33,222 nucleotides of DNA from Oscillospiraceae bacterium (GTDB lineage: Bacteria; Bacillota; Clostridia; Oscillospirales; Oscillospiraceae). The notes below the pieces were generated by a model. The model ran no database searches. It was not told where the DNA came from and was given only the letters and a program-made list of their open reading frames with translations. Positions within the stretch are counted from its first letter, which is position 1, and each line of letters begins with the position of its first letter. The position numbers and the translations under genes are program-made. The DNA lies in assembly GCA_024404215.1 (NCBI GenBank), contig JAKSQI010000001.1, positions 1 through 33,222 on the forward strand, written 5' to 3'. Shown in pieces: positions 3,864 through 28,044 of this stretch.

Positions 3864-3875
3864 ACATGTACCTCC

Positions 3876-3910: not shown

Positions 3911-3925
3911 ACTGAAAATCTAATA

Positions 3926-4090: not shown

Positions 4091-4107
4091 CATATTCACG
4101 TGACCCA

Positions 4108-4135: not shown

Positions 4136-4256
4136 TATGAATAAATGAAAATAACTGGAGTTAATAACAAAAACCCGTTGTACGTATGGAGAACATGGGA
4201 TAAGCGGACAGCCGTTGTGAGAGCTTATGCCGAAGGGAGAAAGGACCTGGCTTGCT

Positions 4257-4736: not shown

Positions 4737-4798
4737 AAGGATATCCCCTTTCCTTTTCTGTATTATAGCACAGCGGAGGCCAAAGGCTGATAAAAATA

Positions 4799-4827
4799 TT
4801 GGTAGGCAGACAAACTTGTGATACAAT
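4799..4827 (+). promoter_or_regulatory. candidate sigma-A promoter for the DUF2284 and MBL genes
   Basis: TTGGTA, a 17-nt spacer, then TACAAT, with an upstream TG (extended -10). Confidence 0.5.
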
Positions 4828-4860
4828 GGGGCTATTGGGAAAGAAAGTGGGGATTGCGCT

Positions 4861-5400
4861 ATGTTGAGTGAAGTAAGAATGACCGAACTAGCTCGGGCCC
4901 AGGGCTTTGAAGCGGCGGTTGTGAATACCGATGATATTGTAACAAATCCGGACTACCGTAAGTATTGTGAGGATAATCTCTGCGGGAATTATAATGCCAA
5001 TTATGGCTGCCCGCCTTACTGCGGAACACCGGCGGAAATGGACAGCAAACTCCGTTCCTTCCGTCGGGGGATGGTGCTGAAAACCTCCGCTCAAGTAACA
5101 AGTGCCTTGAATGCTGATGAGGTGGTGCCCATGAAAAAGAACCATAATAAGGGGACCCTCCGGTTGCTCCGTCAGTTGGTGGCTGAAGGCCTCACTGCCC
5201 ACAGCTTAGTCATGGCCGGCCCCTGCGGCCTTTGCGAAGAATGCAAAATGAAATCCGGAGAGCCCTGTCAAATGGAAAATGCCCGCTATTCCTGCCTGTC
5301 GGCCTATTGCATTGATGTAACCAAGCTGGCGGAGACAGCCGGCATGCCCATTGCGTGGACTGTGGACCAGGCAGCCTTTTTCAGCATCGTGCTGTTTTAA
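4861..5400 (+). CDS. DUF2284-like Cys-rich metal-binding protein
   Basis: Cys clusters CEDNLCGNYNANYGCPPYCG and CGLCEECKMKSGEPC. The overall layout is that of the predicted metal-binding DUF2284 family. Confidence 0.75.
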   Translation: MLSEVRMTELARAQGFEAAVVNTDDIVTNPDYRKYCEDNLCGNYNANYGCPPYCGTPAEMDSKLRSFRRGMVLKTSAQVTSALNADEVVPMKKNHNKGTLRLLRQLVAEGLTAHSLVMAGPCGLCEECKMKSGEPCQMENARYSCLSAYCIDVTKLAETAGMPIAWTVDQAAFFSIVLF

Positions 5401-8809: not shown

Positions 8810-10219
8810 TTAAGCCTCGGCAGCGGCTTTAGCCTTGGCTGTGATGCCTTTGGTTTTCCAGCGGCCAATCCGATAATATACCAGAGTGGCAGCTGCATTG
8901 ATGACAACCGCTATGCCCAAACCCCAGAAGCTGCTGCGGGGGTCGCCCACCGGATGGGCCGGGCTTCGGGTAAGGTAGGCAATGAGATAGGCGGCGGGGA
9001 TGCGGATGACCGTTTGGGTAACCAGAGAAATCCACATGGGGCCCATGGCATCTCCGGCACCGCGGATAACACCGCCGAAGCTTTGACCGATGGCCATGAC
9101 CAGATACACCGGAATCATGGCAAAAATCAGCTGATAGCCCAGGTCAATCAGCTCCTGTGTTGTAGTGAAAAGTCCAATCATCCATTTACCGAACAGTATC
9201 ATAAGCGCAATCATGGTGAGAGAAACGGTCAAGCTCATGACAAAAACGGTGCGACAGCCTTGTTTAACCCGGTCCATGCGGCCGGCGCCAACATTTTGGC
9301 CGGTAAAGGTGGAGGCACTCATATTGAAGGTGGTGCTGGGAATCATGGCGAAAGCATCCACACGCAGCATAGCCGTGATGGCGGCAGTTACCATATAGCC
9401 CATGGCATTGTTCAGCCGCTGGATAACGATAGTGGAGAGCCACATAATGGCTTGAGCAATACCGTTAGGCAGGCCCAAACGGCAGACCGTGCCAACAACA
9501 TCCTTTTTCAAAAGCAGGCTGCGAAAATTCAGCCGGAAATAGCGGCGGCTCATAACAACCTTAACCAGACAGACAATGGCAGATAAAGTTTGGCCAATGA
9601 TAGTAGCATAGGCGGCGCCGGCAATGCCAAAGCCAAGTCCGGCTACAAACCAAATATCCAGAACGATATTCAGCAGCATGGTGCCCAGGAGAACCAGAAG
9701 AGGAAACACGGATTCCCCCATGCCCCTGAGAATGCCGGACATGATGTTATAAAAGCCATTGCCGGCCAAGCCGGCCAGGCAAATCAGCATATAGGTCCTG
9801 CCCATGTCGTAGCTTTCCACCGGTGCCTTAATGGCGTGGAGCATCCAGTCCAGACCCAGCAGACCAAAGGTGGTCAGTACTATGGACACCAAGGCAATTA
9901 GGGTAATGCTATTGCCAACACTGGTTTCCAGCTTGTCGTATTCCTGGGCACCAAAGTACTGAGAAACCATAACCATAACGCCGGAACCGATGGCAATAAA
10001 AAGCACCAAAAACAGATTTAAAATGGGGGAGGTAACACCAATGGCGCTGAGGGCCGCGTCACCGCAGTAGCGGCCTACCACAATGCTGTCAACAGTGCTG
10101 TAGGCCAGCTGAGCCAGGTTGCCCATCAGCAGGGGAACGGAAAACATGAGCAGACAGGTCAGGGGAGCCCCCTGGGTCATATCCTGTGCGCCGAAAAGAT
10201 GTTTGAATTTTGTCAGCAT
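8810..10219 (-). CDS. MATE family efflux transporter
   Basis: 12-TM profile. The start at 10219 aligns with the paralogue's N-terminus (MLTKFKHLFGAQD vs MNSVLTNFKKLFQGQD). It overlaps the upstream stop as ATGCTGA. The track start at 10270 is an alternative. Confidence 0.85.
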   Translation of the reverse strand: MLTKFKHLFGAQDMTQGAPLTCLLMFSVPLLMGNLAQLAYSTVDSIVVGRYCGDAALSAIGVTSPILNLFLVLFIAIGSGVMVMVSQYFGAQEYDKLETSVGNSITLIALVSIVLTTFGLLGLDWMLHAIKAPVESYDMGRTYMLICLAGLAGNGFYNIMSGILRGMGESVFPLLVLLGTMLLNIVLDIWFVAGLGFGIAGAAYATIIGQTLSAIVCLVKVVMSRRYFRLNFRSLLLKKDVVGTVCRLGLPNGIAQAIMWLSTIVIQRLNNAMGYMVTAAITAMLRVDAFAMIPSTTFNMSASTFTGQNVGAGRMDRVKQGCRTVFVMSLTVSLTMIALMILFGKWMIGLFTTTQELIDLGYQLIFAMIPVYLVMAIGQSFGGVIRGAGDAMGPMWISLVTQTVIRIPAAYLIAYLTRSPAHPVGDPRSSFWGLGIAVVINAAATLVYYRIGRWKTKGITAKAKAAAEA

Positions 10220-12359: not shown

Positions 12360-12520
12360 TCTTAAGAAGCTCCTTACGGGATTTTCCCGTGATTGCTATG
12401 GCACAGAAGGGGAAACTATGCTACAATGTCAAGTAACATAATCAGCGCTGAATTTTACTGTTAGTATACTCTAAAAGGGTGTTGTTTGTAAACCGCAGCA
12501 TAGGAAACAGGAGTGATTGC

Positions 12521-14920
12521 ATGTATACTTTTCCGACCGTAACAGAGCGAATTGCCCGTCTGCGTAAGCGCTATCGCGATGAGCTTCCCGGCTTTGACAG
12601 TGAGCGTGTGCGTATTGTAACCGAGTATTATCAAGCTCATCCTCACGAGAACCAGATGATGCGCCGGGCCAATGCCATGTATAAGATTCTGGAAGGGGTG
12701 CCCCTGCGTATTGAGCCGGATGAGCTGTTGGTCGGTAATTCCGGGAAGTATTATAAGGGAAGCATGCTTTTTCCCGAGTATAATGACCTTAGCTGGCTTC
12801 CCCGGGAAATTGCCAGCGGCAAGTTTGACAACCGCACCCTTCAGGAAGCCCGCTGCTTTATGTCTCAGGAGGACCGGGACTATATCTGTGGTGTAGTTGA
12901 CTATTGGCAGGACCACAACGCCAATGCTCTGTCCCATTTTGAAATGACCCCGGAGCAGGAAGCGGTCTGTGCCTCCGGTGCCCTTTCCTTTGGCCCCTAC
13001 AGCCGCAATGAGGTTCACGGCCATTACAATGCCAACTACCGCAAGGTAGTGGAAAAGGGCTTTACGGCAATCAAAGCTGAGGCCGAGGCAGAACTTGAAA
13101 AGCTGAACCATAATATCGGCGGACAGGATGCGGAGAAGTGGTTCTTCTACCGGGCGGTCAGCATTTGCTGTGATGCTGCCATCCTTTTTTCCCGACGCTA
13201 TGCGGCCCTGGCTAGAGAAATGGCAGCAACCGCGGAGGAGCCCCGGAAGGCAGAATTGCTGGAAATTGCGGAACGGATGGACTGGATTATGGCGAACCCC
13301 TGCCGTAATTATAAGGATGCCCTCCAGGCAGTCCTGCTCTACCATCTCATTCTTGCCTATGAAGGCAGCCTGCTGGGGCTGACGGTTGGCCGTTTGGATG
13401 GTCATGTGGGTGACTATCTCCACCGGGATTTGGAAAATGGCGACATTACCATGGCGGAAGCCCAGGAATACATGGATTGCTTCTGCCTAAAGGTGGCGGA
13501 AATCATTATCAGCGGTCCGGCAGAGTTCATGACCGTTGCCGGTGCCTACAGCGACAACATGCGTCTGACCTTGGCAGGACGCAAGGCGGATGGCAGCGAT
13601 GCTTCCTGCGAGGCAACCTATTTAGTACTTAATACCATGGCCCGGCTGAAGCTGCATGACCCCAACATCAGCCTGTGTGTTCACGACGATATTCCGGATT
13701 CCCTTTGGGAGGCGGCAGTGGAAACCAACCGAGTCTGCGGCGGTAATCCGACACTGGATAATGCGGACCTGTTGATTGAAATGCTGCTTAAGCGCGGCCT
13801 GTCACTGGAGGATGCCCGCAACTTCTGTATCATCGGATGTGTGGAGCTGTCCGGCAGCGGCTGCGATTTTTCCAATGTATCCGGCCCCTTCAGTAAGGCT
13901 TTCTTTATTATGCCCCAGGTGGTTGTTCAGGCCATTAACAACGGCAGATGCCCTCAGAACGGCATCCAAAGCGGTCCGGCTACCGGCTATCTGTATGAAA
14001 TGGAAACCTTTGAAGACTTTAAGCGGGCCTTTGCCGCCCAATTGGCTTGGTTTATGGACTGGCATCACACCTTAAGCGTATTAACCGAGTACATGGGCAA
14101 CGCCATGGTGCCCAACCCCATGGCTTCCGCTACCATAGACGGATGCATGGAGTCCGGCCGGGATATGATGGTGGGCGGTGCCAAGTACAATTCCTGCGGT
14201 TTTGCCGTCAAGGGATTGGGCACAGCCATTGATAGCCTGGCAGCGGTTCGCTATTTGGTGTATGACAAAAAGCTGTGCACGGCCCGGGAGCTTTACGATG
14301 CCCTGCTGAACAATTGGGAAGGCTGCGAAAGTCTGCGCCAGGCCGCCAAAAACGCGCCGGCCTTCGGAAATGCGGATCCTTATGTGGATGAGCTGGCTTC
14401 CTGGCTTTCGGATATGTTCTCACAGCGGGTAAGCGGCTATACCGGTCCCCGGGGGCCTTTCCAGGCCGGTGCCTATTCAGCCGGCGGCCATGTGGCCAGC
14501 GGTTATCGCGTTCCGGCAACTCCCAACGGCAGAAGGAGCGGTGAGGCACTGTCGGATGGCGCTTCCCCTACCCAGGGCGCTGACCGCTGCGGTCCTACCG
14601 GTGTTGCCGGCAGCATTCTTGCCCTTCACCCGGAGCGCTACTGGAACGGCATTCAGTTTAACATGAAGTTCCATCCCTCCTGCGTTCAGGGGCAGGAAGG
14701 CATTGAAAAGATGCGCAGCTTTGTCCAGTCCTTTTTCCGCATGGGAGGTACTCAGGTGCAGTATAACATTGTCAGCTCCGATACCCTGCGCAAGGCACAG
14801 GCTAACCCGGATGAATATCGGGATTTAGTGGTTCGCGTGGCTGGTTTTTCTGCCTTCTTTGTGGAGCTGGTACCCGATCTGCAGAATGACTTGATTCGAC
14901 GGACAGAAGTAATGATGTAA
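12521..14920 (+). CDS. glycyl radical enzyme (PFL2 / 1,2-eliminase-like family), substrate unknown
   Basis: C-terminal glycyl radical motif VVRVAGFSAFFVEL and a Cys loop IIGCVELSG. The ATG at 12521 lies 6 nt after AGGAG. The track start at 12479 (GTG) lacks an RBS. Confidence 0.9.
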   Translation: MYTFPTVTERIARLRKRYRDELPGFDSERVRIVTEYYQAHPHENQMMRRANAMYKILEGVPLRIEPDELLVGNSGKYYKGSMLFPEYNDLSWLPREIASGKFDNRTLQEARCFMSQEDRDYICGVVDYWQDHNANALSHFEMTPEQEAVCASGALSFGPYSRNEVHGHYNANYRKVVEKGFTAIKAEAEAELEKLNHNIGGQDAEKWFFYRAVSICCDAAILFSRRYAALAREMAATAEEPRKAELLEIAERMDWIMANPCRNYKDALQAVLLYHLILAYEGSLLGLTVGRLDGHVGDYLHRDLENGDITMAEAQEYMDCFCLKVAEIIISGPAEFMTVAGAYSDNMRLTLAGRKADGSDASCEATYLVLNTMARLKLHDPNISLCVHDDIPDSLWEAAVETNRVCGGNPTLDNADLLIEMLLKRGLSLEDARNFCIIGCVELSGSGCDFSNVSGPFSKAFFIMPQVVVQAINNGRCPQNGIQSGPATGYLYEMETFEDFKRAFAAQLAWFMDWHHTLSVLTEYMGNAMVPNPMASATIDGCMESGRDMMVGGAKYNSCGFAVKGLGTAIDSLAAVRYLVYDKKLCTARELYDALLNNWEGCESLRQAAKNAPAFGNADPYVDELASWLSDMFSQRVSGYTGPRGPFQAGAYSAGGHVASGYRVPATPNGRRSGEALSDGASPTQGADRCGPTGVAGSILALHPERYWNGIQFNMKFHPSCVQGQEGIEKMRSFVQSFFRMGGTQVQYNIVSSDTLRKAQANPDEYRDLVVRVAGFSAFFVELVPDLQNDLIRRTEVMM

Positions 14921-15016
14921 ACAACCTGAAGGTTGTAAAAGATAGTGCGCCTGCTTCTTTCCCTTTATCCCGGAAGTGGGGTATAATACGGCTACTGAAC
15001 AAAGGAGAGGAACCCT

Positions 15017-15826
15017 ATGTCAAAAGTATTTGTCATTGATATTGCCCGATGCAGCGGCTGCTATAACTGCCAGCTGGCCTGTAAAGACGAGCATTGCTAT
15101 AACGACTGGATGCCTTATGCCAAGCCCCAGCCGGAAATCGGCCAGTTTTGGTGCAAGGTGCACGAGCACCCGGAGGGAACCATTCCCAAGGTAAAAATCC
15201 ATTATGTGTCCCAGCTTTGCGGTCACTGTGACAAGCCGGCCTGTTTGGAGGCCTGTTCCCATGGTGCCGTTTCCAAGCGGGAGGACGGCTTGGTCCTTAT
15301 TGATCCTGCGAAGTGCCAGGGGTGTGGGGCCTGCATGGAAGCCTGCCCCTATGACGCCATTTATAAGAACGATGCATTGAATATCTGCCAAAAGTGTACC
15401 GGCTGTGCTCATCTGCTGGATAACGGCTCCAAGCTGCCCCGCTGCGTGGAGGCCTGCCCCACCGACGCCATGCGTTTCGGTGAGAAGCAAGACTTTGCCC
15501 AGGAGCTGGAGCGGGCTCTGGTGCTGCACCCGGAGACGGCCCCGAATGTGTATTACCTGAACATGCCCGGGCGCTTCCTGGCCGGCACCCTCTTTGACCC
15601 GGTGGAGCAGGAGGTTCTCATTGGTGCCAAGGTGACCTGCGTGGGTGAAGGCCTGACCCTTGAGACGGAAACCGATGATTTTGGTGATTATTGGTTTAAG
15701 AATCTGCCGGATAACGGCGTCTTTACCGTTACGGCAAAAATGCCCGGCTACAGGGATTTGGTCTTTGAGCAGGTCAGCACAGAAAAAAGCCTGAATTTGG
15801 GGGATACCCCCATGGAACGGCTGTAA
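15017..15826 (+). CDS. DmsB/NrfC-like 4x[4Fe-4S] ferredoxin fused to a carboxypeptidase-regulatory-like beta-sandwich domain
   Basis: Four Cys groups: CSGCYNCQLAC, CGHCDKPACLEAC, CQGCGACMEACP, and CQKCTGC...CVEACP. The C-terminal roughly 90 aa (GAKVTCVGEG...DYWFKNLPDNGVFTVTAKMPGY) resembles CarboxypepD_reg. No CxxxCxxC radical-SAM motif is present. Confidence 0.85.
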   Translation: MSKVFVIDIARCSGCYNCQLACKDEHCYNDWMPYAKPQPEIGQFWCKVHEHPEGTIPKVKIHYVSQLCGHCDKPACLEACSHGAVSKREDGLVLIDPAKCQGCGACMEACPYDAIYKNDALNICQKCTGCAHLLDNGSKLPRCVEACPTDAMRFGEKQDFAQELERALVLHPETAPNVYYLNMPGRFLAGTLFDPVEQEVLIGAKVTCVGEGLTLETETDDFGDYWFKNLPDNGVFTVTAKMPGYRDLVFEQVSTEKSLNLGDTPMERL

Positions 15827-15838
15827 AGAGCAATCCCG

Positions 15839-15874
15839 GAAGGGCTGTGATGGTCACAGCCCTTCTTATTTTTA
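15839..15874 (+). terminator. intrinsic terminator
   Basis: GAAGGGCTGTGA ... TCACAGCCCTTC followed by TTATTTTTA. Confidence 0.8.
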
Positions 15875-15934
15875 ATAAATAGTTGCCAAAGTGTTCATTT
15901 TAATGGTAAAAACAATAAATATGAATGATTGATA

Positions 15935-15963
15935 TTGACGACTGTCAGGCGGCGTGATAGAAT
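15935..15963 (+). promoter_or_regulatory. sigma-A promoter of the cobalamin riboswitch leader
   Basis: TTGACG, a 17-nt spacer, then TAGAAT with TGa (extended -10). Confidence 0.7.
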
Positions 15964-15984
15964 CAGCCAAATTTAATACTTGTT

Positions 15985-16180
15985 TTCAGTGCTTCATTGC
16001 ACCGCTTAGGGCGATGAAGAGAATAGAGAATCATGTGAGAACCATGGACGGGGCCGCCACTGTATGTGCTCCGGGTGTGTGCGTTGACGAAAGTCAGTCA
16101 TTGGCAAATTGCTGAGAAGGCAGCATACATCCGCCGCTTTTGCGAGGAACACGAGTCAGGAGAACTGCTGGGAATTTGAA
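15985..16180 (+). promoter_or_regulatory. cobalamin (B12) riboswitch
   Basis: GAGAATCATGTGAGAACCATGGACGGGGCCGCCACTGTA matches the GGGAA..GGTGAGAATCC..CCCGCCACTGT core. GAGTCAGGAGAACTGC at 16153-16168 matches the B12 box AGTCAGGAGACCTGC. Confidence 0.8.
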
Positions 16181-16234
16181 GGGATTTCTGTGCACGGGAC
16201 GCTGTGCAGGGACTGTTTTTGTTGCAGGAAAACG

Positions 16235-16272
16235 GCTGCGGCACAGGCTTTTGTCTGTGCCGCGGCTTTTTT
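16235..16272 (+). terminator. terminator of the cobalamin riboswitch expression platform
   Basis: GCTGCGGCACAG-N8-CTGTGCCGCGGC followed by TTTTTT. Confidence 0.8.
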
Positions 16273-16362
16273 GTATAAACCGAATTGCTGCCGGAACTGG
16301 TGGCAAGGCTGGTTTTATTACCGATTCTTTGAGAATTCCAGGCCTCTTCCTTGTTGATTTTC

Positions 16363-16407
16363 TATCCCCCCTGGGGGCTTATCAGCGAAAAGAAGAAATG
16401 GTACAAT
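16363..16407 (+). promoter_or_regulatory. C/G-tract palindrome (site 1) abutting a sigma-A promoter
   Basis: TATCCCCCCTGGGGGCTTA (16363-16381) overlaps the -35 TTATCA. A 17-nt spacer leads to TACAAT (16402-16407), which is preceded by TGg. Confidence 0.6.
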
Positions 16408-16471
16408 TCCTCTCAAAGCGATGGGGGTAAAAGCCCGCGCAAAAATTAAATCACATTGTGGCCGACTGAAC

Positions 16472-16533
16472 AACAGCAGGCTTACCTAAAGTATCACCCT
16501 CGGGGGTGGTGTTGGGTAAGCCTGCTGTTTTTT
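16472..16533 (+). terminator. leader terminator (attenuator) upstream of the methyltransferase gene
   Basis: A 15-bp stem, AACAGCAGGCTTACC with GGTAAGCCTGCTGTT, encloses a CACCC/GGGTG inner hairpin. TTTTTT follows. It ends 25 nt before the ATG. Confidence 0.75.
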
Positions 16534-16558
16534 GGTTATCGCGGGATGGAGGAAACAG

Positions 16559-18046
16559 ATGAATCAGCAAGAGCGCGGGGAACGATGGGCTGACGGAAAG
16601 GGCTATGACAGCTACATCCAGGGGGAACTGCATTCCTTCCGTAAGGAAGCATGGAAACAGCAGCTGAGGCAGCATTTGCCTAAAAAGAATCTTCAAATCC
16701 TGGCTGTTGGAACAGGACCGGGCTTTTTCAGCTGCATTCTTTCTGAGCTGGGGTATCGGGCAACCGGCATTGATGCATCGGAAGGCATGTTGGCCTGTGC
16801 CCGTAAGAATGCGGAATGCTTGCAGGTGACACCTGAATTTCTGTTGATGGATGTTAACAGCCTGACCTTTCCGGATGAAAGCTTTGATGTTTTGGTAATG
16901 CGAAATGTAACCTGGACCTTGGAGCATCCGGAAAAGGTATATTCTGAGTTTAAGCGGCTGCTGAAGCCCAGGGGCATGCTGCTGATTTATGATGCCAACT
17001 GGCAGCTGCAGTTTTTTGACCCGGATTTGCGGCAGCGTGTGCTGGCTCGGGAAAAGGCCTATCGGGAAAAGTATGGTCGGGAGGAATTTGTTTCCCGAGG
17101 CGACATGGCTTATTATGCCACCGCCCCTTTGACTCATACCTACCGACCGGACTGGGACCGGGAGGTGCTGACCAATTTGGGCTTTGAGGTTTCCATAGAA
17201 GAGAACATTGGCAGAAGGGTTTATGAGCAGTGGGAAAAGGATTTGTATGCCGAGTCCCCTTTGTTTGAGATATGCGCAGTCAAGAAAGCGGAACCAGAGA
17301 CCCAAACCAACATGCATACCTACTGGCAGAAACGGGCGGAAACCTTTGGTTTTTTCCGCAAGCCGGAGGACGTGGATGCTATGGGGCGGGAGTATGCCCG
17401 TTATTTACCGGAGGGGCCTCTTCAGGTGCTGGATGCCGGTACGGGAACCGGCGTGATAGCTGCGGTTATGGCAAAGCTTGGCCATAAGGTTACTGCTGTT
17501 GACCTGTGTTCCAACATGCTGGAAAAGGCAAAGGAGAATCTGCGCAGTTTGGGACTGCAGGCGGATTTCTACTGCACCTCTGCCGGCGAACTGCCCTTCC
17601 CCGATGAAAGCTTTGATGTCGTTATCTCCCGCAATGTGACCTGGGCCCTGCCGGAGCCGGAGCATGTCATGGAGCAGTGGCGAAGGGTTCTCAAGCCCGG
17701 TGGCCTTTTGATTTATCGGGATGCCAATCACTACAACTACCTCTTTTTTGAAGAGGACCGGCAAAACCGAGAACGTATCATTGAATTGGCAGGCACCCCC
17801 CACGGAGACCATAACGATTCAAAGGAATATGATTATAATCTGTGTGATGAAACCGCCTACAATTTGCCTATGTCTAAGCTGAAACGTCCCGGACAATGGG
17901 ACGATATCATGCTGCCAAAGCTGGGCTTTGATATTTTAGCAGAGGAGCTTCGTTATCCCCAACGTCTGTTGAAATATGGCATAGCTGATGGCTACTATAC
18001 GGATTTTACCATAGTGGCCAGAAAGGCGGAAACAATAGAGGAGTGA
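16559..18046 (+). CDS. fused tandem class I SAM-dependent methyltransferase (two MTase domains)
   Basis: Two SAM-binding motifs, ILAVGTGPGFF and VLDAGTGTGVIA. Each is followed by FPDESFDV(L/V)..RNVTW.L..PE....(F/W).R.LKP.G.L. The ATG at 16559 follows GGAGGAAA. Confidence 0.85.
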   Translation: MNQQERGERWADGKGYDSYIQGELHSFRKEAWKQQLRQHLPKKNLQILAVGTGPGFFSCILSELGYRATGIDASEGMLACARKNAECLQVTPEFLLMDVNSLTFPDESFDVLVMRNVTWTLEHPEKVYSEFKRLLKPRGMLLIYDANWQLQFFDPDLRQRVLAREKAYREKYGREEFVSRGDMAYYATAPLTHTYRPDWDREVLTNLGFEVSIEENIGRRVYEQWEKDLYAESPLFEICAVKKAEPETQTNMHTYWQKRAETFGFFRKPEDVDAMGREYARYLPEGPLQVLDAGTGTGVIAAVMAKLGHKVTAVDLCSNMLEKAKENLRSLGLQADFYCTSAGELPFPDESFDVVISRNVTWALPEPEHVMEQWRRVLKPGGLLIYRDANHYNYLFFEEDRQNRERIIELAGTPHGDHNDSKEYDYNLCDETAYNLPMSKLKRPGQWDDIMLPKLGFDILAEELRYPQRLLKYGIADGYYTDFTIVARKAETIEE

Positions 18047-18050
18047 TGAA

Positions 18051-19031
18051 ATGGGACGCTATATCCTGAAACGGCTGCTGTGGCTGATACCGGTCATGCT
18101 GGTAATCTCCCTGATAGCCTTCCTTTTGATGTATCTGTCACCCGGCGATCCTGCGACGATTTACCTGTCCATGGGTGGTGATTCGCCTTCCGCAGAGGCC
18201 GTGGCAGAGCTGAGGGAAAAGATGGGACTGAATCGGCCTCTGTACGAACAGTTTGGAAGCTGGCTGATAAATCTGCTGCACGGTGATTTGGGAACATCCT
18301 TCTTTACGAAAAACCCGGTTATTGAGGATATTGCAACCCTATTCCCCAACACCCTTAAGCTTACGTTACTGGGCATGCTGGGAACACTGGTGATTTCCAT
18401 ACCCTTGGGCATTCTATCTGCAGTAAAGGCCAATAAGCTGACGGATAACATAATACGTGCCGGGTCCTTTGTTGTCGGTTCCATGCCGGGATTCTTTGCT
18501 GCCCTGCTGCTGATTTATCTTTTGGGTGTCAAGCTCCGTTGGCTTCCCACAATAAGCTCAGGATCCGCCAAGGGCATCATCCTGCCTGCCTTGACCTTAG
18601 CCTTGACAATGGCCCCCAATTATATCCGACAGATTCGAGCTGAGATTGTTAAAGAACTGGGAGAGGATTACATCCGAATGTTCCGGGGCAGAGGTATCAA
18701 AGAACGAATGATTCTTTATAACGGTGCACTGAAAAGTGTTATGCCCTCCATTCTGACCATTGCCGGAATGAACATGGGGCATTTGTTGGGGGGAACTTCC
18801 ATCATTGAAATGGTCTGTACCTACCAGGGGCTGGGGCGCTTGGCGGTAAATTCCATTACCAACCGTGATTATCCCCTGATGCAGGGGTTTGTTCTAATGA
18901 TGGCAGGTATTTATGTCATTATCAATCTGGTGGTGGATATTCTGCACGCCATGGCAGACCCGAGAGTAAAGCTTCGTATTTTGGCGGAGAACGGAGGTGG
19001 CTACCGACATGGAAAAAAGAAGGCGGTTTGA
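18051..19031 (+). CDS. ABC transporter permease (peptide/nickel family, OppB/NikB-like)
   Basis: Typical N-terminus MGRYILKRLLWLIPVMLVIS and LSPGDPA. Contains an EAA-like loop. Confidence 0.9.
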   Translation: MGRYILKRLLWLIPVMLVISLIAFLLMYLSPGDPATIYLSMGGDSPSAEAVAELREKMGLNRPLYEQFGSWLINLLHGDLGTSFFTKNPVIEDIATLFPNTLKLTLLGMLGTLVISIPLGILSAVKANKLTDNIIRAGSFVVGSMPGFFAALLLIYLLGVKLRWLPTISSGSAKGIILPALTLALTMAPNYIRQIRAEIVKELGEDYIRMFRGRGIKERMILYNGALKSVMPSILTIAGMNMGHLLGGTSIIEMVCTYQGLGRLAVNSITNRDYPLMQGFVLMMAGIYVIINLVVDILHAMADPRVKLRILAENGGGYRHGKKKAV

Positions 19032-19842
19032 CCCGGCAGTAGTCCGGCTTTTGGTTTGGTCCGGCATAGTTCTTCTGCTTCTTGTTTTGGCCTGGGTGGG
19101 TCCTCGCTTTATCCACCATGACCCCTATGAGGTTAATCTGCTGCAGATAACGGCGAGGCCTTCGGCAGAGTATCTCATGGGCACAGATTACCTGGGGCGC
19201 TGCACTCTTTGCCGTCTTATTACCGGAGCAGCCCGGTCCATATATGCGTCTTTAGCCGTGGTAGCTATCACTTTTATCATTGGAACAGCCATAGGAACCG
19301 TTTGCGGTTTTATCGGCGGGGCTTTTGATACGGTGGTTATGAGATTTGTAGATGCCGTGCAGGCCTTTCCCAGTCTCGTTTTTACCATTGCCATTGCGGC
19401 CATGCTGGGCAGCGGCATGGGCAACTGTATCATCGCCATGTCCTGTATTAACTGGACCCAATATGCCCGGCTTTCCCGCAGCCAGGTGCTGCAGGTGAAG
19501 GAGCGCACCTTTGTTAAGGCGGCCCGAACCACCGGCATGACCAATCGGCAGATTCTTTTTAAAACCATTTTGCCTAACAGTATGACGCCCCTGATTGTAT
19601 CGGCCAGCATGCATGTTGGAAACACAATCCTGGGTTTTTCCGGCCTAAGCTTTCTGGGGCTTGGTACCATGCCCCCCTTCCCGGAGTGGGGGAATATGCT
19701 CAACGACGGCAAGGCAACCCTGCAGACTGCACCCTGGACCGTTATTTTCCCGGGACTGGCCATTTTGCTTGTTGTCATGATTATGGGTATGTTCGGCGAC
19801 AGCGTGAATGAAGCGCTGAATCCGAAGAAAAATACAAATTAA
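19009..19842 (+). CDS. ABC transporter permease (OppC/NikC-like)
   Basis: Six-TM BPD_transp_1 profile. The ATG at 19009 follows GGAGGTGG. A GTG at 18997 is an alternative start. Confidence 0.88.
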   Translation: MEKRRRFDPAVVRLLVWSGIVLLLLVLAWVGPRFIHHDPYEVNLLQITARPSAEYLMGTDYLGRCTLCRLITGAARSIYASLAVVAITFIIGTAIGTVCGFIGGAFDTVVMRFVDAVQAFPSLVFTIAIAAMLGSGMGNCIIAMSCINWTQYARLSRSQVLQVKERTFVKAARTTGMTNRQILFKTILPNSMTPLIVSASMHVGNTILGFSGLSFLGLGTMPPFPEWGNMLNDGKATLQTAPWTVIFPGLAILLVVMIMGMFGDSVNEALNPKKNTN

Positions 19843-19863
19843 CAAACGAGAAAGGAAATTCAA

Positions 19864-21504
19864 ATGAAAAAAAACATGCTGAAAAAACTGACAGCCCTCA
19901 TGCTGTCCGTGCTGATGCTGCTGGCTCTCTTTGCCTGTGGCAGCAAGCCTGCGGATACTGCAGTGAGCCAAACTCCTGCTTCTTCGGATAATGCGGCGCA
20001 GTCAAGCACCGGAACGGATAATTCTGCAGCCACAGAAGAGAGACACATTGAGTTTACCTTCGGTGCAAACTCTGCCGCTAACAACGCAACGGTATTTACC
20101 TTTGACCCTGCTGTAGATTATAACGCATCAAAAGCAACAGCCATGGGCATGGCAGAGACTCTGTTGGCCTTGGATGCTAACAAGGAGGTTCAGCCAAAGC
20201 TGGCAACTGCTATTGAAAACACGGATGACACGACCTGGGTCTTGACCATTCGTGACGGTGTTACTTTTTCTAATGGGAAAGAACTGACCGCAGAAATGGT
20301 AAAAAAGTCTTTAGAGTATACCCTGTCTGTCAATGAACGCTTGAGCGCATTGGCGGATGTTGCCTCCATGGAGGCTGATGGCCAGACCTTGACCATTCAT
20401 ACCAATGCTGTCGTTGCTATTTTCGACCGCGTTTTGACAGAGCCCAACATGGCTATTTTTGATGTGGAGGGCACCGAGAATCTGGACAAAAATATGATTG
20501 GTACCGGTGCCTATATCCTGACCGATATGGACAGCGAAGGAAACTGCACTTTGACCCGCAACGACAATTACTGGCAGGGTACCCCCATTGCTGAAACCAT
20601 TCACACTAAGGCCAATCTGGATTCAGCAGCCATTACTTTGGCTCTCCAGTCCGGTGAAATTGACTGGTCCACCGGTGTTTCCACCAGTGACCTGGCCTTG
20701 TTTGCCGGCAACCCGGATTATGAGGTTCAAGAATACAATGCTGGTCGAGCCTTCTATCTGTATGTAAACCCCAACTATACCTTTACCATGGATCCTGCCC
20801 TGCGTGAAGCCCTTCAGTATGCCATAGACCGCGATGCCATCATTGCCGGTGTATACAGTGGTTATGGCTTCTCAACCCAGTCCATTTTCCCTGACTATTC
20901 CGAATACTACGACGCATCCTTGCAGCAGGCGGCTTATGATAAGGATAAGGCTGCCCAGATTTTGGCTGATGCCGGTTATGCGGATGCCGATGGCGATGGC
21001 TTCCTGGAAAAGGATGGTCAGAAGGTCACCCTGAATATTCTCTGCTATGCTAAAAACCAGTTTGATACCCTCAGCGAGGTTCTGCAGTCCATTCTCAAGG
21101 GCTATGGCATTGATGCCACCATTCAGGTCAGCGACACCATTAGCGATGATGCCAATGCCGGCGAATTCAATCTGGCTACCTATGGCTACAATACCCTGAC
21201 CCTGGGCGATTGCTACAATTATCTGTATCCTGTGTTCCATTCTCAAGGTACCGCAAACTTTAACGACCTTAACGATGCTGAAATTGACGGCTGGCTGGAT
21301 GAACTGAAGGTTACCAGTGACATGTCCAAACGTGTAGAGCTGGTTAAGAAGATTCAGGAGAAGGTTTATGCATCCAATGAATATATCTATATCATGCATG
21401 TAAAAAACACCATGGTATCCAAGGCCGGCATTGTTAATCTGCCTCCCATGTTTGGCGGTGACCAAATGGATAACTGCGTCCTCTGGACTGTTGACCGCAA
21501 ATGA
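19864..21504 (+). CDS. ABC substrate-binding lipoprotein, family 5 (OppA/NikA-like)
   Basis: Signal peptide with lipobox LALFAC-G. Length of 546 aa and motifs fit SBP_bac_5. Confidence 0.88.
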   Translation: MKKNMLKKLTALMLSVLMLLALFACGSKPADTAVSQTPASSDNAAQSSTGTDNSAATEERHIEFTFGANSAANNATVFTFDPAVDYNASKATAMGMAETLLALDANKEVQPKLATAIENTDDTTWVLTIRDGVTFSNGKELTAEMVKKSLEYTLSVNERLSALADVASMEADGQTLTIHTNAVVAIFDRVLTEPNMAIFDVEGTENLDKNMIGTGAYILTDMDSEGNCTLTRNDNYWQGTPIAETIHTKANLDSAAITLALQSGEIDWSTGVSTSDLALFAGNPDYEVQEYNAGRAFYLYVNPNYTFTMDPALREALQYAIDRDAIIAGVYSGYGFSTQSIFPDYSEYYDASLQQAAYDKDKAAQILADAGYADADGDGFLEKDGQKVTLNILCYAKNQFDTLSEVLQSILKGYGIDATIQVSDTISDDANAGEFNLATYGYNTLTLGDCYNYLYPVFHSQGTANFNDLNDAEIDGWLDELKVTSDMSKRVELVKKIQEKVYASNEYIYIMHVKNTMVSKAGIVNLPPMFGGDQMDNCVLWTVDRK

Positions 21505-22451
21505 GCAGGCTGCTGGATATCAATGGGATTGATGTCAGCTATGGAAACGCCCCCATTCTGAGGGGCGTTTCCATGCACGTCAAGGACGGTGAAATTGTAG
21601 GTGTTGTTGGTGAGTCCGGCAGCGGAAAGAGCACGACTATTTATGCTACCCTGGGTATTTTGGGGAATGGCGGAAAGGTAACAGCCGGCTCCATTCATTA
21701 CGATGGCCGGGATTTGCTCGCCCTTTCACAGGAGGACCTGAGAAAGATGCGGGGCAAGGAAATGTCCCTTGTTGCACAAAACCCTGTGACATCCTTCCAT
21801 CCCATACGAAAAATCAATAAACAGCTGAAGGAACTGGTTGCCTGTCACTCCGGTATGACCTATGCGGAAGCAGAGGAGCATATGTGTGAAATCATGGCAA
21901 AAATGAACTTGAAGGATGGAAAGCGCCTGCTTAACAGCTATGCCTTTGAACTGTCCGGTGGCATGTGCCAGAGGGTATCCATTGCCATGGCTCTGGTGTT
22001 GAGTCCAAAGCTCCTGCTGGCAGATGAGCCCACCAGCGCACTGGATGTTACCGTTCAAAAGCAGGTTGTGGAGGAGATGCGGAAGCTAAGGGATGAGTAT
22101 GGTAACTCCACCCTGATTGTATCCCATAACATGGGGGTTATTTCCTATATCTCTGATCGGGTTTATGTCATGTTTGCCGGCCGGGTTATGGAGTATGGGG
22201 AGAAGGGTGCCGTGATAAAAAGGCCCATGCATCCCTACACCAAAAATTTGATTGCGGCTGTGCCAACCATGGACGCACCCATGCCGACCGGCGTCCGCCC
22301 CACCGGGTTTGACCGGACAGTTCCCGGCTGTGTCTTTTATCAAAGCTGCCCCTGCCGACAGGAAGTCTGCGCCTTGTCAGATCCGGAGCCGGTAGAAACA
22401 GAATCCGGTCATTTTGTCAAATGCCATTGTATTCGGGAGGGAAAGCTATGA
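21501..22451 (+). CDS. ABC transporter ATP-binding protein (OppD/NikD-like)
   Basis: Walker A GESGSGKST, signature LSGGMCQR, Walker B LLLADEPT. ATGA overlap with the binding-protein gene. Confidence 0.92.
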   Translation: MSRLLDINGIDVSYGNAPILRGVSMHVKDGEIVGVVGESGSGKSTTIYATLGILGNGGKVTAGSIHYDGRDLLALSQEDLRKMRGKEMSLVAQNPVTSFHPIRKINKQLKELVACHSGMTYAEAEEHMCEIMAKMNLKDGKRLLNSYAFELSGGMCQRVSIAMALVLSPKLLLADEPTSALDVTVQKQVVEEMRKLRDEYGNSTLIVSHNMGVISYISDRVYVMFAGRVMEYGEKGAVIKRPMHPYTKNLIAAVPTMDAPMPTGVRPTGFDRTVPGCVFYQSCPCRQEVCALSDPEPVETESGHFVKCHCIREGKL

Positions 22452-23203
22452 ATGCCGTTGAAGTGGAAAACCTGAAGGTGAGCTTTTATTCCCATAAAAG
22501 CAACTCCTTTGTCCATGCCGTAGATGACGTTAGCTTTACTCTTGGCGAAAATGAGTTTTTGGGCTTGGTTGGTGAATCCGGCTGCGGAAAAAGCACCATT
22601 GCCCGTATGCTGATGGGGCTGCAGATTCCCGACGGCGGCACCATTCGCATCAAAGGGAAAGAAATCAAGCCCCCCTATCCTCACAACGTGTACAAGCAGA
22701 TTCAGATGATTTATCAAATGCCTCAGGACTCCTTCGACCCCCGCCGGAAGGTGGGGACCTGTATTACTGAAATACAGAGTAATTTCGGCGTAAACAAGAG
22801 GGAGGCCAGAGACTTTACCATGCATCTGCTGACCAGGGTTGGCTTGACGGAGGAGTACTATAATAAGTATCCCCATGAGATGAGCGGTGGAGAATGTCAG
22901 CGGGCGGCCATTGCTCGTTCTCTGTCCTTGAAGCCGGATGTACTGATTTGCGATGAGCCTACCAGTGCCTTGGATGTAAGTGTACAGGCCCAGGTGGTGG
23001 AGCTCCTGGCTCAGCTTCGCAAGGAAATGAAGCTGGGGGTCCTCTTTATTTCCCATGACCTGGCGTTGGTACAAGGTCTCTGCGATTCTGTCATGGTCAT
23101 GTATCAAGGCAAAATTGTGGAACGGGGCAGCGCAAAAGAAATCACCCAAAACCCCCGGGAAGACTATACACGCAAGCTTTTAAGTTCAGTCTTGTTGGTC
23201 TAA
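22448..23203 (+). CDS. ABC transporter ATP-binding protein (OppF/NikE-like)
   Basis: GESGCGKST, MSGGECQR, VLICDEPT. The ATG at 22448 overlaps the upstream stop and follows GGGAGGGAAAG. Confidence 0.92.
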   Translation: MNAVEVENLKVSFYSHKSNSFVHAVDDVSFTLGENEFLGLVGESGCGKSTIARMLMGLQIPDGGTIRIKGKEIKPPYPHNVYKQIQMIYQMPQDSFDPRRKVGTCITEIQSNFGVNKREARDFTMHLLTRVGLTEEYYNKYPHEMSGGECQRAAIARSLSLKPDVLICDEPTSALDVSVQAQVVELLAQLRKEMKLGVLFISHDLALVQGLCDSVMVMYQGKIVERGSAKEITQNPREDYTRKLLSSVLLV

Positions 23204-23244: not shown

Positions 23245-23290
23245 TATCCCCCCTGGGGGCTTAACAAAATCCCGCGATTTGTTGTACTAT
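23245..23290 (+). promoter_or_regulatory. C/G-tract palindrome (site 2) abutting a sigma-A promoter
   Basis: TATCCCCCCTGGGGGCTTA (23245-23263), identical to site 1, then TTAACA, an 18-nt spacer, and TACTAT. Confidence 0.6.
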
Positions 23291-23351: not shown

Positions 23352-23501
23352 ATGGCAGAAAACCGTGAATGGAAACTAACTGAGAAGGAAGAAAAGCTGT
23401 TGGCCATGCTGCGTGAAATTCGATTTGGTGAAGTGGTGATTCATGTGGCGGATGGTCAGCCGGTGCGTGCGGAAGAGGTCCGCAAGAGTATTAAATTCTG
23501 A
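23352..23501 (+). CDS. small DUF2292/YezD-like protein (49 aa), absent from the ORF track
   Basis: MAENREWKLTEKEEKLLAMLREIRFGEVVIHVADGQPVRAEEVRKSIKF. The ..L..I.FG.V.I.V.DG.....E...K pattern is that of the YezD family. GAGGTGA RBS 6 nt upstream. Confidence 0.7.
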   Translation: MAENREWKLTEKEEKLLAMLREIRFGEVVIHVADGQPVRAEEVRKSIKF

Positions 23502-23533: not shown

Positions 23534-23578
23534 TATCCCCCAGGGGGGCTTTAAAGCAAAGCCGACCGGTGTTATACT
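23534..23578 (+). promoter_or_regulatory. C/G-tract palindrome (site 3) abutting a sigma-A promoter
   Basis: TATCCCCCAGGGGGGCTTTA (23534-23553), then TTTAAA, a 17-nt spacer, and TATACT preceded by TGt. Confidence 0.6.
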
Positions 23579-23616: not shown

Positions 23617-23645
23617 CCGCACTCCGGTGAGGGAGTGCGGTTTTT
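23617..23645 (+). terminator. leader terminator (attenuator) upstream of the His-rich gene
   Basis: CCGCACTCC-N6-GGAGTGCGG followed by TTTTT. It lies 65 nt before the ATG. Confidence 0.7.
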
Positions 23646-23709
23646 CATAGGGCTCCGGCAGACTGCCGGGAGAGGGATGGAGTCGAAATAAGAATAAAGG
23701 AGTACCGTT

Positions 23710-24138
23710 ATGCATTTGGAACACGATATTGTGGGCAGCGAGCATGAGCATACGCACACCCACGAGCATACCCACGAGCACACCCATGAAAATGGCGAGA
23801 CCCATCAGCATGCCCATACCCATGAGCATTGTCACAGCCACGGCCATGACCATGAGCATACCCATGACCATGCTCATGACCACGACCACGCCCATGAGCA
23901 TTGCCACGACCACGAGCACAGCCATGATCACGGCCATGGGGAGGCCGATAACCGCCTCTATGCATTGATGAATTACATGGCCGGCCATAATGCCGACCAC
24001 ACCAAGGAATTGGCTGAACTGGCTGTCCAGCTGAAGGACAGCGGCAAGGAATCTGCCTATAACAAGGTAATGGCCGCTGTAGAAGAATTCGGAAAGGGCA
24101 ATGACCTGCTGGCAGAGGCCCTGAAGGAACTGAACTGA
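23710..24138 (+). CDS. histidine-rich (H-x-H repeat) putative metal-binding protein with a C-terminal helical domain
   Basis: By my count there are about 33 His in the first 76 residues, in a near-perfect alternating HxH array (HEHTHTHEHTHEHTH...HDHEHSHDHGHG), plus 2 Cys. An ordinary roughly 60-aa helical tail follows. AAAGGAG RBS. Confidence 0.8.
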   Translation: MHLEHDIVGSEHEHTHTHEHTHEHTHENGETHQHAHTHEHCHSHGHDHEHTHDHAHDHDHAHEHCHDHEHSHDHGHGEADNRLYALMNYMAGHNADHTKELAELAVQLKDSGKESAYNKVMAAVEEFGKGNDLLAEALKELN

Positions 24139-24171: not shown

Positions 24172-24215
24172 CCCCGTGCTTCCGTCATGAGAAGCACGGG
24201 GCTTTTGTCGTTTTT
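24172..24215. terminator. bidirectional intrinsic terminator
   Basis: CCCCGTGCTTC-N8-GAAGCACGGGG with CTTTTGTCGTTTTT on the plus side. An A-rich run upstream serves the convergent minus-strand gene. Confidence 0.8.
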
Positions 24216-27426: not shown

Positions 27427-28044
27427 TTACGGCTGCAGATGCCCCTTGGAGAATTCACAGCCGCAGTAGTCCTGGCGATAGAGATCATACTCCTTGGAGA
27501 GAATGGTGCTGCGCTTGAAGCCTTCCTTTTTCTTAAAATCCGAGGGCAGCCAGGCCACCCCGTATTTCTCGGCCAAACTGCGGCCTATGGCATTGATGCG
27601 GGGAGCGTCCTTATGGGGGCTGACGGTAAGGGTGGCGGCAAAATAGTCATACCCTCCCTCTTTAGCGGCCTTGGCAGCCTCCTCCAGACGGAGGATAAAG
27701 CAGGCGGTGCAGCGGGCGCCGCCCTCCGGCTCCTGCTCCAGTCCGGCAGCAGCTTCAGCAAAGGGAACGTGGTCATAGGGGGCCACCACCAGGGAAACCG
27801 GATTGGGGTATTGGGCCCGCTCCAGCAGCTGCTGCTGGGCCTGCATCCGGCGCTGATACTCTTCGGCGGTGTCCATATTAGGGTTGTAGTAGAAGACGGT
27901 AACCCGGAAATAACGGGCTAAGTATTCCAGCACATAGCTGCTGCAAGGGCCGCAGCAGCTGTGAAGCAGCAGGGTGGGCTTCTCGCCGGCCTTCACGTGG
28001 CCGGCGATAATGTCATCCATCAGCCGCTGGTAGTTTTCTTTCAT
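27427..28044 (-). CDS. queH: epoxyqueuosine reductase QueH (DUF208)
   Basis: LLHSCCGPCSSYV, ARCTACF and DYCGCEFS motifs characteristic of QueH. Confidence 0.88.
   Translation of the reverse strand: MKENYQRLMDDIIAGHVKAGEKPTLLLHSCCGPCSSYVLEYLARYFRVTVFYYNPNMDTAEEYQRRMQAQQQLLERAQYPNPVSLVVAPYDHVPFAEAAAGLEQEPEGGARCTACFILRLEEAAKAAKEGGYDYFAATLTVSPHKDAPRINAIGRSLAEKYGVAWLPSDFKKKEGFKRSTILSKEYDLYRQDYCGCEFSKGHLQP

Follow-up and report, generated by a model that had tools for sequence, protein, structure and literature searches.

A predicted two-domain methyltransferase joined to a Nik-type importer in an Oscillospiraceae genome, with cobalamin-riboswitch and candidate metal-regulon control

The closest described systems to the locus reported here are NikABCDE and the staphylococcal Opp2BCDF-Opp5A importer, which have the same five components and domain families and which gave its best NCBIfam and PDB matches. 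NikABCDE homologues preceded by cobalamin (B12) riboswitches in C. tetani and D. hafniense have been predicted to be cobalt transporters (Rodionov 2006, cited in Zhang 2009, PMC2667541); these are likewise clostridial Nik-type importers behind a cobalamin riboswitch, with a cobalt-for-B12 logic, and the passage of PMC2667541 that deals with them makes no mention of a methyltransferase partner. The present locus lies in contig JAKSQI010000001.1 of an Oscillospiraceae bacterium (GenBank assembly GCA_024404215.1), of which 33,222 nucleotides (nt), hereafter the window, were analysed. In this window the gene for a two-domain S-adenosylmethionine (SAM)-dependent methyltransferase (MT) directly precedes five genes of a Nik/Opp-type ATP-binding cassette (ABC) importer, behind a cobalamin riboswitch and a second promoter. 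In anaerobic communities, among them those of the gut, nickel and cobalt supply sets a limit to methanogenesis, acetogenesis, hydrogen metabolism, and B12 production, and the capture of the two metals where sulfide makes both scarce is poorly understood.

The methyltransferase-importer module

The first importer gene, permB, starts at 18051, leaving a gap of 4 nt after the MT stop codon, and the genes overlap or lie 4 to 22 nt apart. By Pfam, the five-component PepT set was complete, with one SBP_bac_5 protein, two BPD_transp_1 permeases, and two ABC ATPases. A preliminary description of this DNA had reported the 4-nt gap to a five-gene PepT importer, which was borne out; it had also given the layout as OppABCDF/NikABCDE, and here it needed correction, the actual order being B-C-A-D-F and not A-B-C-D-F. 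The importer genes are:

18051 to 19031, + strand: permease, NikB/Opp2B-like (BPD_transp_1 and its N-terminal domain; NCBIfam Opp2B)
18997 to 19842, + strand: permease, NikC/Opp2C-like (BPD_transp_1; NCBIfam Opp2C)
19864 to 21504, + strand: substrate-binding lipoprotein (SBP) with lipobox LFAC (SBP_bac_5, Pfam E=1e-72)
21501 to 22451, + strand: ABC ATPase with oligo_HPY tail, OppD/NikD-like (Pfam, NCBIfam)
22421 to 23203, + strand: ABC ATPase, OppF/NikE-like (Pfam, NCBIfam)

Conservation of this arrangement was surveyed with a one-genome-per-species scan, which yielded 80 loci, and with individual look-ups, which brought the set to 87 non-redundant loci (related loci carry the prefix L below). 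Nik-type ABC genes were present in 68 of the 87, and in 55 of the 87 the MT lay within 600 nt of a Nik/Opp-type ABC gene on the same strand; several of the loci outside the 55 were short contigs. Synteny of MT and transporter in relatives, which had been set beforehand as a test of the preliminary description, was thus found, Methanosarcina and diderm bacteria included. Judged from gene order, METHYLTRANSFERASE is tied to the transporter far beyond the Clostridia. The bacterial hosts included Lachnospiraceae, Oscillospiraceae, Acetobacterium, Sporomusa, Desulfotruncus, Deltaproteobacteria, Eggerthellaceae, Paenibacillus, Citrobacter, and Pasteurellaceae, and the archaeal hosts included Methanosarcina and Methanomassiliicoccales; grouped more broadly, they fall into Firmicutes, Deltaproteobacteria, Enterobacteria, Pasteurellaceae, Actinobacteria, Methanosarcina, and Methanomassiliicoccales. 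The same five-gene importer adjoins an MT homologue in another Oscillospiraceae bacterium, and in Methanosarcina the order is SBP-B-C-D-F, followed by a double MT and then a single MT. In diderm relatives a TonB-dependent receptor and/or a DUF4198 protein is encoded after the module, which points to a substrate of chelate size. Genomes with two or three importers had a separate MT for each (L025, L030, L043, L061, L065, and L071), which fits an enzyme matched to each imported substrate.

For a census of neighbours, all adjoining open reading frames (ORFs) were clustered against each other. The only other recurrent neighbours were the efflux pump MatE (about 15 loci, mostly abutting), LysR-type regulators (7 loci, embedded in the module in several), and FecCD permeases (6 loci). 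MatE, the commonest neighbour after the MT and importer genes, also abuts the module in L089, L090, and L092. No other biosynthetic enzyme was conserved near the module in this clustering. In L089, the locus of the closest relative, positions 647-5082 hold a further importer made up of a BtuF-like SBP, a FecCD permease, and an ATPase, with its own embedded MT; upstream of it are two operator copies (described below) and a divergent csoR/rcnR-like gene, and it adjoins MatE, the double MT, and the Nik-type importer.

Nickel-type models were the best NCBIfam matches of the SBP and of both permeases. Permease B scored 350 bits with the Opp2B 'nickel ABC transporter permease' model, exactly at the cut-off of 350, and permease C scored 287.5 bits with the Opp2C nickel permease model (cut-off 300). 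For the SBP, the top model was Opp5A_nikA (286 bits, cut-off 600), nickel_nikA gave 150 bits (cut-off 393), and nikA ranked ahead of CntA, GsiB, DppA, and OppA. The best PDB matches of the SBP were nickel-binding proteins (3t66, 1e-50; S. aureus NikA, 2.5e-37), and E. coli NikA (5e-27) came level with the oligopeptide binder AppA. Clustering of the binding protein with ordinary oligopeptide binders, which would have refuted the preliminary description, was not borne out, in that its best scores were nickel-type and not with OppA or DppA, with the tie between AppA and E. coli NikA as a reservation. The SBP was also aligned to E. coli NikA taken from NC_000913.3 (25% identity), in which we take R97, W100, R137, W398, Y402, and H416 to form the Ni-(His)2 pocket. 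Four of these six residues are not conserved in the window SBP, and a canonical pocket of the E. coli type was ruled out. In the Methanosarcina module, the SBP shows 36% identity to E. coli NikA and retains five of the six. Loss of the pocket here and its retention in Methanosarcina suggest that the window SBP probably binds a different ligand or complex, and from these comparisons the MT module appears as a companion of nickel-family importers in general.

The MT ORF runs from the ATG at 16559 to the stop at 18046 on the + strand, encodes 495 amino acids (aa), and has GGAGG 6 nt 5' of its start. Pfam returned two Methyltransf_11/25/31 stretches (E=5e-52), with both class I domains complete, and each half shows the Rossmann-type fold, the GxGxG motif, and the acidic residue of strand 2 that mark a class I SAM-methyltransferase. 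The earlier claim of two such domains in one chain, with the motifs quoted for them, was confirmed in both halves:

16559 to 17299, + strand: MT N-terminal domain, with SAM motif VGTGPG and RNVTW (Pfam)
17300 to 18046, + strand: MT C-terminal domain and then the stop codon, with SAM motif AGTGTG and RNVTW (Pfam)

Across 12 homologues, G51, G53, G55, and D72 in the N-terminal half, G294, G296, G298, and D315 in the C-terminal half, and the R-N-x-x-W residues in both halves alike were invariant. This retention of the SAM-motif glycines, the strand-2 aspartate, and R-N-x-x-W suggests that both halves are probably active. The AlphaFold2 model (pLDDT 90.5, pTM 0.86) contains two alpha/beta domains, and the nearest single-domain PDB structures are small-molecule methyltransferases. 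The best NCBIfam match was the 'corrinoid protein-associated methyltransferase CpaM' (120 bits, cut-off 180), and NCBIfam and PDB comparisons gave a weak likeness to methyltransferases of arsenite and of thiols. At E<=1e-5 the MT matches more than 2,000 proteins in the database, the closest being mostly 487-515 aa long, and those that are named are labelled only 'class I SAM-dependent methyltransferase' or UbiE-like. Elsewhere in the window, at 4861-5400 (+ strand), lies a gene for a DUF2284 'predicted metal-binding protein'; NCBIfam models of arsenite methyltransferase-DUF2284 fusions match the MT weakly.

The preliminary description had noted a 17-nt stretch identical in the two halves and had concluded, from it and from a shared peptide motif, that the gene arose by internal duplication. 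The stretch, GATGAAAGCTTTGATGT, is indeed present in exactly two copies (at 16874 and 17603; 0 expected), but the conclusion was not upheld. It is part of the shared peptide DESFDV, where identical codons have P ~0.02 under the codon usage of the window, and it was present in 0 of 97 related loci. The halves share 36% identity over 199 aa (E=9e-36), and aligned they show 49% nucleotide identity overall and the same codon at 40 of 84 identical residues, which is about the level predicted by codon usage. When 152 MT domains taken from the non-redundant loci were clustered, the N-terminal half fell in the main MT clade together with single-gene MTs 56-58% identical to it (for example, from Lacrimispora), and the C-terminal half fell in a separate clade whose members, from 9 non-redundant loci, are all second domains of fused proteins. 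A recent internal duplication or gene conversion was ruled out by the nucleotide identity, the expected level of codon sharing, and the placement of the halves in different clades; the existence elsewhere of MT pairs as separate adjoining genes leads to the same conclusion for duplication. On this clustering, the MT is more aptly called a fusion of two paralogues that diverged long ago.

In another branch of the MTs, a different second paralogue (28 members) is either fused behind the first type or encoded by a separate neighbouring gene, in either order. This argues that the paralogous pair is a recurrent feature and that fusion occurred more than once. Variants of 811-849 aa, in which an AstE/AspA-type amidohydrolase stands between two MT domains, are encoded directly 5' of a Nik/Opp-type importer. 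Three-part proteins of this kind were seen at L095 9001-11436 and L096 9001-11523 (P0088, P0107, and about 20 others).

Cobalamin riboswitch, second promoter, and operator

The leader upstream of the MT gene contains the following elements:

15935 to 15963, + strand: promoter-like site P1, TTGACG-17-TAGAAT with TG (consensus scan, 10/12 matches)
15970 to 16186, + strand: cobalamin riboswitch aptamer RF00174 (69.4 bits against a gathering threshold of 31.5; model positions 1-189 of 189)
16234 to 16273 (16234 to 16267 in the terminator scan), + strand: strong intrinsic terminator of the riboswitch, 15-bp stem and T-run (scan, fold)
16363 to 16407, + strand: operator TATCCCCCCTGGGGGC fused to promoter P2 (-35 TTATCA, 17 nt, TG-n-TACAAT), before the MT operon (promoter scan)
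16470 to 16536, + strand: long terminator-like hairpin with U-run, immediately 5' of the ribosome-binding site in the leader (fold)

The aptamer scores above its gathering threshold, lies upstream on the coding strand, and is followed by a terminator as a switch-off platform. P1 is placed after the terminator (15838-15866) of the upstream Fer4 gene and would start the riboswitch leader. Immediately 5' of the riboswitch, and ended by this same terminator, are genes at 12479-15826 (+ strand) for a pyruvate-formate-lyase-like glycyl radical enzyme (813 aa) and then a 4Fe-4S dicluster protein with a CarboxypepD_reg-like C-terminal domain. The distance from the riboswitch terminator to the MT ATG is ~290 nt. 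A permissive Rfam scan of 15850-16620 for a second riboswitch in this spacer returned the cobalamin aptamer only, and the hairpin at 16470-16536 matched no Rfam family; the fold of 16150-16570 had z=-7. The MT leader as a whole (16268-16558) was not conserved in the other loci, and its operator-promoter part alone was. Transcription solely or dominantly by way of the riboswitch does not agree with the presence of P2 and of a further hairpin downstream of the terminator. Neither B12-biosynthesis genes nor NikR were found in the window. QueH, which is the cobalamin-independent alternative to the epoxyqueuosine reductase QueG, is encoded at 27427-28044 (- strand), a few kb from the riboswitch operon.

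The riboswitch and terminator are homologous to a unit in the Oscillospiraceae loci L001-L004 (nhmmer E=2e-17 to 1.2e-15), which there separates the double MT from permB; in L001 the same GGCTGCGGC...GCCGCGGCTTTT hairpin follows the riboswitch, 29 nt before permB. By its position, the riboswitch in the L001-L004 lineage would control the importer and not the MT. Riboswitches were surveyed by Rfam scans of 32 non-redundant loci and a profile search of all loci, and one was found directly before the module in five lineages (the window, L001-L004, L067, L075, and L086). In L067 ([Eubacterium] infirmum) it precedes a single MT and then the importer, and in L075 (Hominiventricola) and L086 it precedes the SBP gene; in L017, L040, L048, L049, and L064 it lies within 10 kb of the module. 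With five scattered lineages having a riboswitch and most loci having none, B12 control of the module is, as far as the loci can be compared, recurrent and independently acquired, and non-defining. Three of these loci had further features. L017 (8048-9695) has a riboswitch (109.7 bits) before the gene for a signal-peptide-bearing CbiK-like (cobaltochelatase-type) protein, which lies immediately 5' of an MT-MT-importer-MatE module and a CbiM+PDGLE gene. Two tandem cobalamin riboswitches ~130 nt apart on the same strand are present near the MT module in L040 (18221-18734), and two close ones on the same strand are likewise present near it in L048 (4285-6323).

The operator was found by blastn of the ~290-nt spacer against the loci, followed by a pattern search. 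Its consensus unit is (A/T)ATCCCCC(C) - N0-3 - GGGGG(G) - CTT(G/A)Tn - 17 nt - TGnTAnAAT. The unit joins a C-tract/G-tract palindrome, set directly against the -35 box, to an extended -10. In 1.54 Mb of sequence (related loci and window) it occurred 42 times, in 27 non-redundant loci (the window, L016, L017, L020, L021, L024-L026, L028-L030, L043, L045, L047, L058, L066, L070, L074, L076, L084, L086, L087, L089, L091, L092, L095, and L096), against a mean of ~0.35 in shuffles, and all copies were oriented to the downstream gene. Elsewhere it heads genes for MTs, MatE, CbiM+PDGLE components of nickel/cobalt energy-coupling factor transporters (Pfam 4e-57), and His-rich proteins, and also AF_0155-like and URO-D-family genes. 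In L089 it precedes a CsoR/RcnR-family gene (647-946), the product of which is His-rich near its N-terminus and carries an InrS-like H-C-H-C fingerprint, and csoR-like genes lie inside the modules of L053, L064, L066, and L071. RcnR binds G-tract operators (TACT-G6-N-AGTA). InrS is documented to bind 5' of nik and to promote import (PMC7055735). On these two grounds the operator-promoter set, Nik-type ABC genes included, is read as a putative nickel/cobalt regulon, and by analogy the operator is probably bound by a sensor of the InrS/RcnR family.

Two further copies of the operator-promoter in the window stand downstream of the importer, each before a small gene:

23245 to 23290, + strand: second operator-promoter copy, TATCCCCCCTGGGGGC, TTAACA-18-TACTAT, before the DUF2292 ORF
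23352 to 23501, + strand: small DUF2292/YezD ORF, 49 aa (PF10055, E=1e-6; 28.5 bits, cut-off 22)
23534 to 23578, + strand: third operator-promoter copy, TATCCCCCAGGGGGGC, TTTAAA-17-TATACT, before the His-rich ORF
23710 to 24138, + strand: His-rich protein, 142 aa, HEHTH-type repeats and a 65-aa C-terminal domain (translation), with a terminator at 24172-24201
L091 12112-12573 (- strand), L029 about 9020-9407, and L040 10778-11077: relatives of the His-rich C-terminal domain, beside MT/ABC modules

The relatives of the His-rich C-terminal domain were found by tblastn within the loci, and the one in L029 stands behind the same operator. The domain belongs to no Pfam or NCBIfam family, and a large protein search gave no homologues. 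From its composition and promoter, the His-rich protein is a probable metal-binding or buffering protein of the operator regulon. A DUF2292 homologue at L049 7605-7718 (Alkalibaculum) directly follows a cobalamin riboswitch (7295-7434); with the operator copy of its own in the window, this family seems to be tied to cobalt/B12 regulation. The leader of the His-rich gene also contains a hairpin with a U-run, at about 23617-23650, as do leaders in L026, L028, L086, and L092, and both window leaders (MT and His-rich) share AATTCCTCTCA right after the -10 box. These leader hairpins may constitute an attenuator.

At some distance from the module, a lysine riboswitch (3923-4092, - strand, 80.6 bits) precedes two ORFs, one of 162 aa and unannotated (3375-3863) and one of the Na+/H+-antiporter family (2362-3102).

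Proposed role and rival explanations

The reading that we prefer is a Nik-type importer for a cobalt- or nickel-ligand complex, joined to an MT that modifies the imported ligand and placed under dual control from P1 and P2. In this scheme the Nik/Opp2-type importer would bring in cobalt (or nickel) complexed with a small organic ligand, and the cytosolic two-domain MT would modify that ligand; once its coordinating groups were methylated, the metal could be released and re-chelation prevented, and the spent ligand could be exported where the locus has a MatE pump. A transcript from P1 would pass the cobalamin riboswitch, whose terminator would form when B12 is plentiful, and a shortage of B12 would turn the operon on. 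P2, which lies past the riboswitch terminator, would add an input from the metal regulon through the C-tract/G-tract operator. Uptake of nickel or cobalt, perhaps as a chelate, is reasonably supported and may be held probable: the scores of the nickel-type subunits, the riboswitches, and co-regulation with CbiM and His-rich proteins all favour a cobalt/nickel theme. The proposal that the MT acts on the imported ligand is tentative; it is favoured by the provision of an MT for each importer, the amidohydrolase fusion, the embedded LysR genes, and the lack of other biosynthetic genes. The analysis shows which genes are present, the riboswitch with its terminator, the conserved synteny of MT and importer, the nickel-type affinities of the transporter, and the shared operator-promoter; we infer the identity of the metal, its arrival as a chelate rather than a free ion, the regulator, and, most of all, the target of the MT. 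The scheme as a whole is offered as a possible account in which our confidence falls somewhat short of even. Ferrichrome, which is acetylated after iron release, is a precedent for altering a ligand once it has been imported; methylation to this end would be new.

Several observations weigh against this reading. All NCBIfam nickel models except Opp2B stay under their cut-offs, and of the NikA pocket the window SBP keeps only R97 and H416, with W100 deleted, R137 replaced by E, W398 by T, and Y402 by G. No riboswitch was present at L089 to L094, the closest relatives (67% identity at the top), or at about 15 other loci scanned, and it is missing from most orthologous loci. The hairpin at 16470-16536 would stop transcripts from P1 and P2 alike unless it is regulated. 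A csoR/rcnR-like regulator gene was not found in the window, and sensors of the CsoR/RcnR family classically de-repress efflux at high metal, the opposite of what an importer would call for unless the sensor acts as InrS does at nik. We know of no precedent for metal release through ligand methylation, and the case for function is a comparative one throughout. The preliminary description fared accordingly in its two broader claims. Control by a B12 riboswitch stood in so far as the RF00174 aptamer and its terminator are present upstream of the MT gene, outside the coordinates first given, and had to be qualified in that P2 adds a non-exclusive input and that most orthologues have no riboswitch; uptake of cobalt, nickel, or a chelate was strengthened by the nickel-type scores, the co-regulation with CbiM, and the riboswitches, and was weakened by the loss of most NikA pocket residues.

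Four other explanations were weighed. The module could be biosynthetic, the MT pair making a methylated metallophore that is secreted (through MatE where present) and retrieved by the Nik-type importer once complexed with cobalt or nickel. In combining importer, exporter, and SAM-using enzyme, the layout is like that of opine-metallophore (cnt) operons, MatE abuts the module in about 15 loci as well as in L089, L090, and L092, and the TonB-dependent receptor of diderms suits metallophore uptake. However, most modules have no adjacent exporter, the two MatE genes of the window being 5 kb off on the other strand, no further biosynthetic enzyme is conserved nearby, and genomes with two or three modules would need as many different metallophores. 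The amidohydrolase fused to MTs suggests breakdown and not synthesis, and fits the processing of an imported molecule better; we consider biosynthesis unlikely. It is less likely still that the substrate is a cobamide, a cobamide precursor, or another tetrapyrrole, on which the MT would, for example, methyl-esterify a carboxylate or methylate cobalt. B12 riboswitches commonly control corrinoid transporters and recur at the module, which is frequent in acetogens and methanogens, organisms rich in corrinoid enzymes; moreover, a BtuF/FecCD-type importer with an embedded MT adjoins the module in L089. Some PepT-family binding proteins, namely HbpA, DppA, and E. coli NikA, bind haem. The binding of haem by NikA is noted in the relevant passage of PMC2667541. 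CpaM is the best NCBIfam match of the MT, but this match is generic and under its cut-off (120 against 180 bits), the transporter is closer to nickel-ion and chelate systems than to haem binders, co-regulation of CbiM and His-rich proteins by the operator is a metal-ion theme, and most loci have no riboswitch.

The system might also be an ordinary importer of peptides, as most PepT-family transporters are, or of another nutrient, with the MT and riboswitch as unrelated or chance neighbours. An SBP that is under every nickel-model cut-off, that does not have the E. coli NikA ligand residues, and that scores equally with AppA and E. coli NikA in the PDB search would agree with this; nevertheless, adjacency in 55 of 87 loci over two domains of life, with a spacing of 4 nt here, is not fortuitous, cobalamin riboswitches were recruited repeatedly and independently, and the operator is common to CbiM and His-rich proteins. 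We regard such an origin as very improbable. A role in detoxification is likewise very improbable. In that case the regulon would be turned on by an excess of metal or metalloid, and the MTs would methylate the toxic element or a thiol for removal by MatE, with which the CsoR/RcnR-type operator, the presence of a regulator gene of that family in some modules, the weak similarity of the MT to arsenite and thiol methyltransferases, and MatE among the neighbours are consistent. The invariant partner, however, is a binding-protein-dependent importer and not an exporter, the same operator drives CbiM uptake components, and a B12 riboswitch, which turns genes on when B12 runs short, speaks of a demand for cobalt rather than of an excess.

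Returning to ligand modification after import, its widest form would be an unrecognised step of nickel/cobalt acquisition in many anaerobes and methanogens, in which the paralogous MT pair, fused or separate, modifies the ligand that brings the metal through a Nik-type importer and so releases or traps the metal, within a metal regulon that has a new operator and, in some lineages, B12 riboswitches; this we hold to be doubtful. If true, the MT partner of Nik-type importers would be a new biochemical step in metal acquisition in both Bacteria and Archaea, would point to a new ligand or metallophore, and would give a function to a family with more than 2,000 database matches, of which those with a name are named only generically. 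The shared operator-promoter offers a route to predicting the nickel/cobalt regulon in Clostridia, including DUF2292 and His-rich proteins.

Comparison with known systems

Full-text searching of the literature gave no account of a methyltransferase linked to Nik/Opp importers, and papers on MCR limitation in M. acetivorans and on cobalt starvation in Desulfofundulus contained nothing relevant. The coupling of the MT pair, its spread over Bacteria and Archaea, and the operator-promoter regulon appear to be undescribed in the literature searched. The importer itself is of a known kind, and control of Nik-type importers by B12 riboswitches was already predicted in 2006. Compared with NikABCDE, the window has the order B-C-A-D-F and no NikR, and the MT, which is integral and conserved here, is part of none of the described nik operons.

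Three other systems invite comparison. The opine-metallophore operons (cntKLM-cntABCDF-cntE; staphylopine and pseudopaline) likewise encode a PepT-family importer of metal chelates beside a SAM-using enzyme, to which some loci add an exporter. Models of CntC, CntD, and CntF matched the window importer strongly and CntA gave 105 bits against a cut-off of 800, and the SAM enzyme here is a canonical pair of the Methyltransf_11 type. Membership of this class was ruled out, since neither CntL (nicotianamine-synthase-like) nor CntM (opine dehydrogenase) was found among the window ORFs or the conserved neighbours. The di-domain phosphoethanolamine N-methyltransferases (PEAMT/PMT) of plants and nematodes have two class I MT domains in one chain of ~490 aa and carry out successive methylations of a small molecule. 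PEAMT structures 5wp5 and 5wp4 were the top Foldseek and phmmer matches of the MT in the PDB, the phmmer match covering one domain only. At ~15% identity, TM 0.31-0.38, and a root-mean-square deviation of 16-22 A, membership was ruled out; the low TM and high deviation indicate a different domain arrangement, so that PEAMT is, on the modelled structure, an architectural analogue from another family. Finally, the operators of CsoR/RcnR-family sensors (RcnR, InrS, and DmeR) likewise consist of a G/C tract flanked by A/T, often with two per intergenic region. Compared with the RcnR operator, the present motif differs in sequence, with C5-6 N0-3 G5-6 abutting the -35 box. A further likeness to these sensors is that in L089 the motif would auto-regulate the CsoR/RcnR-family gene with the H-C-H-C fingerprint.

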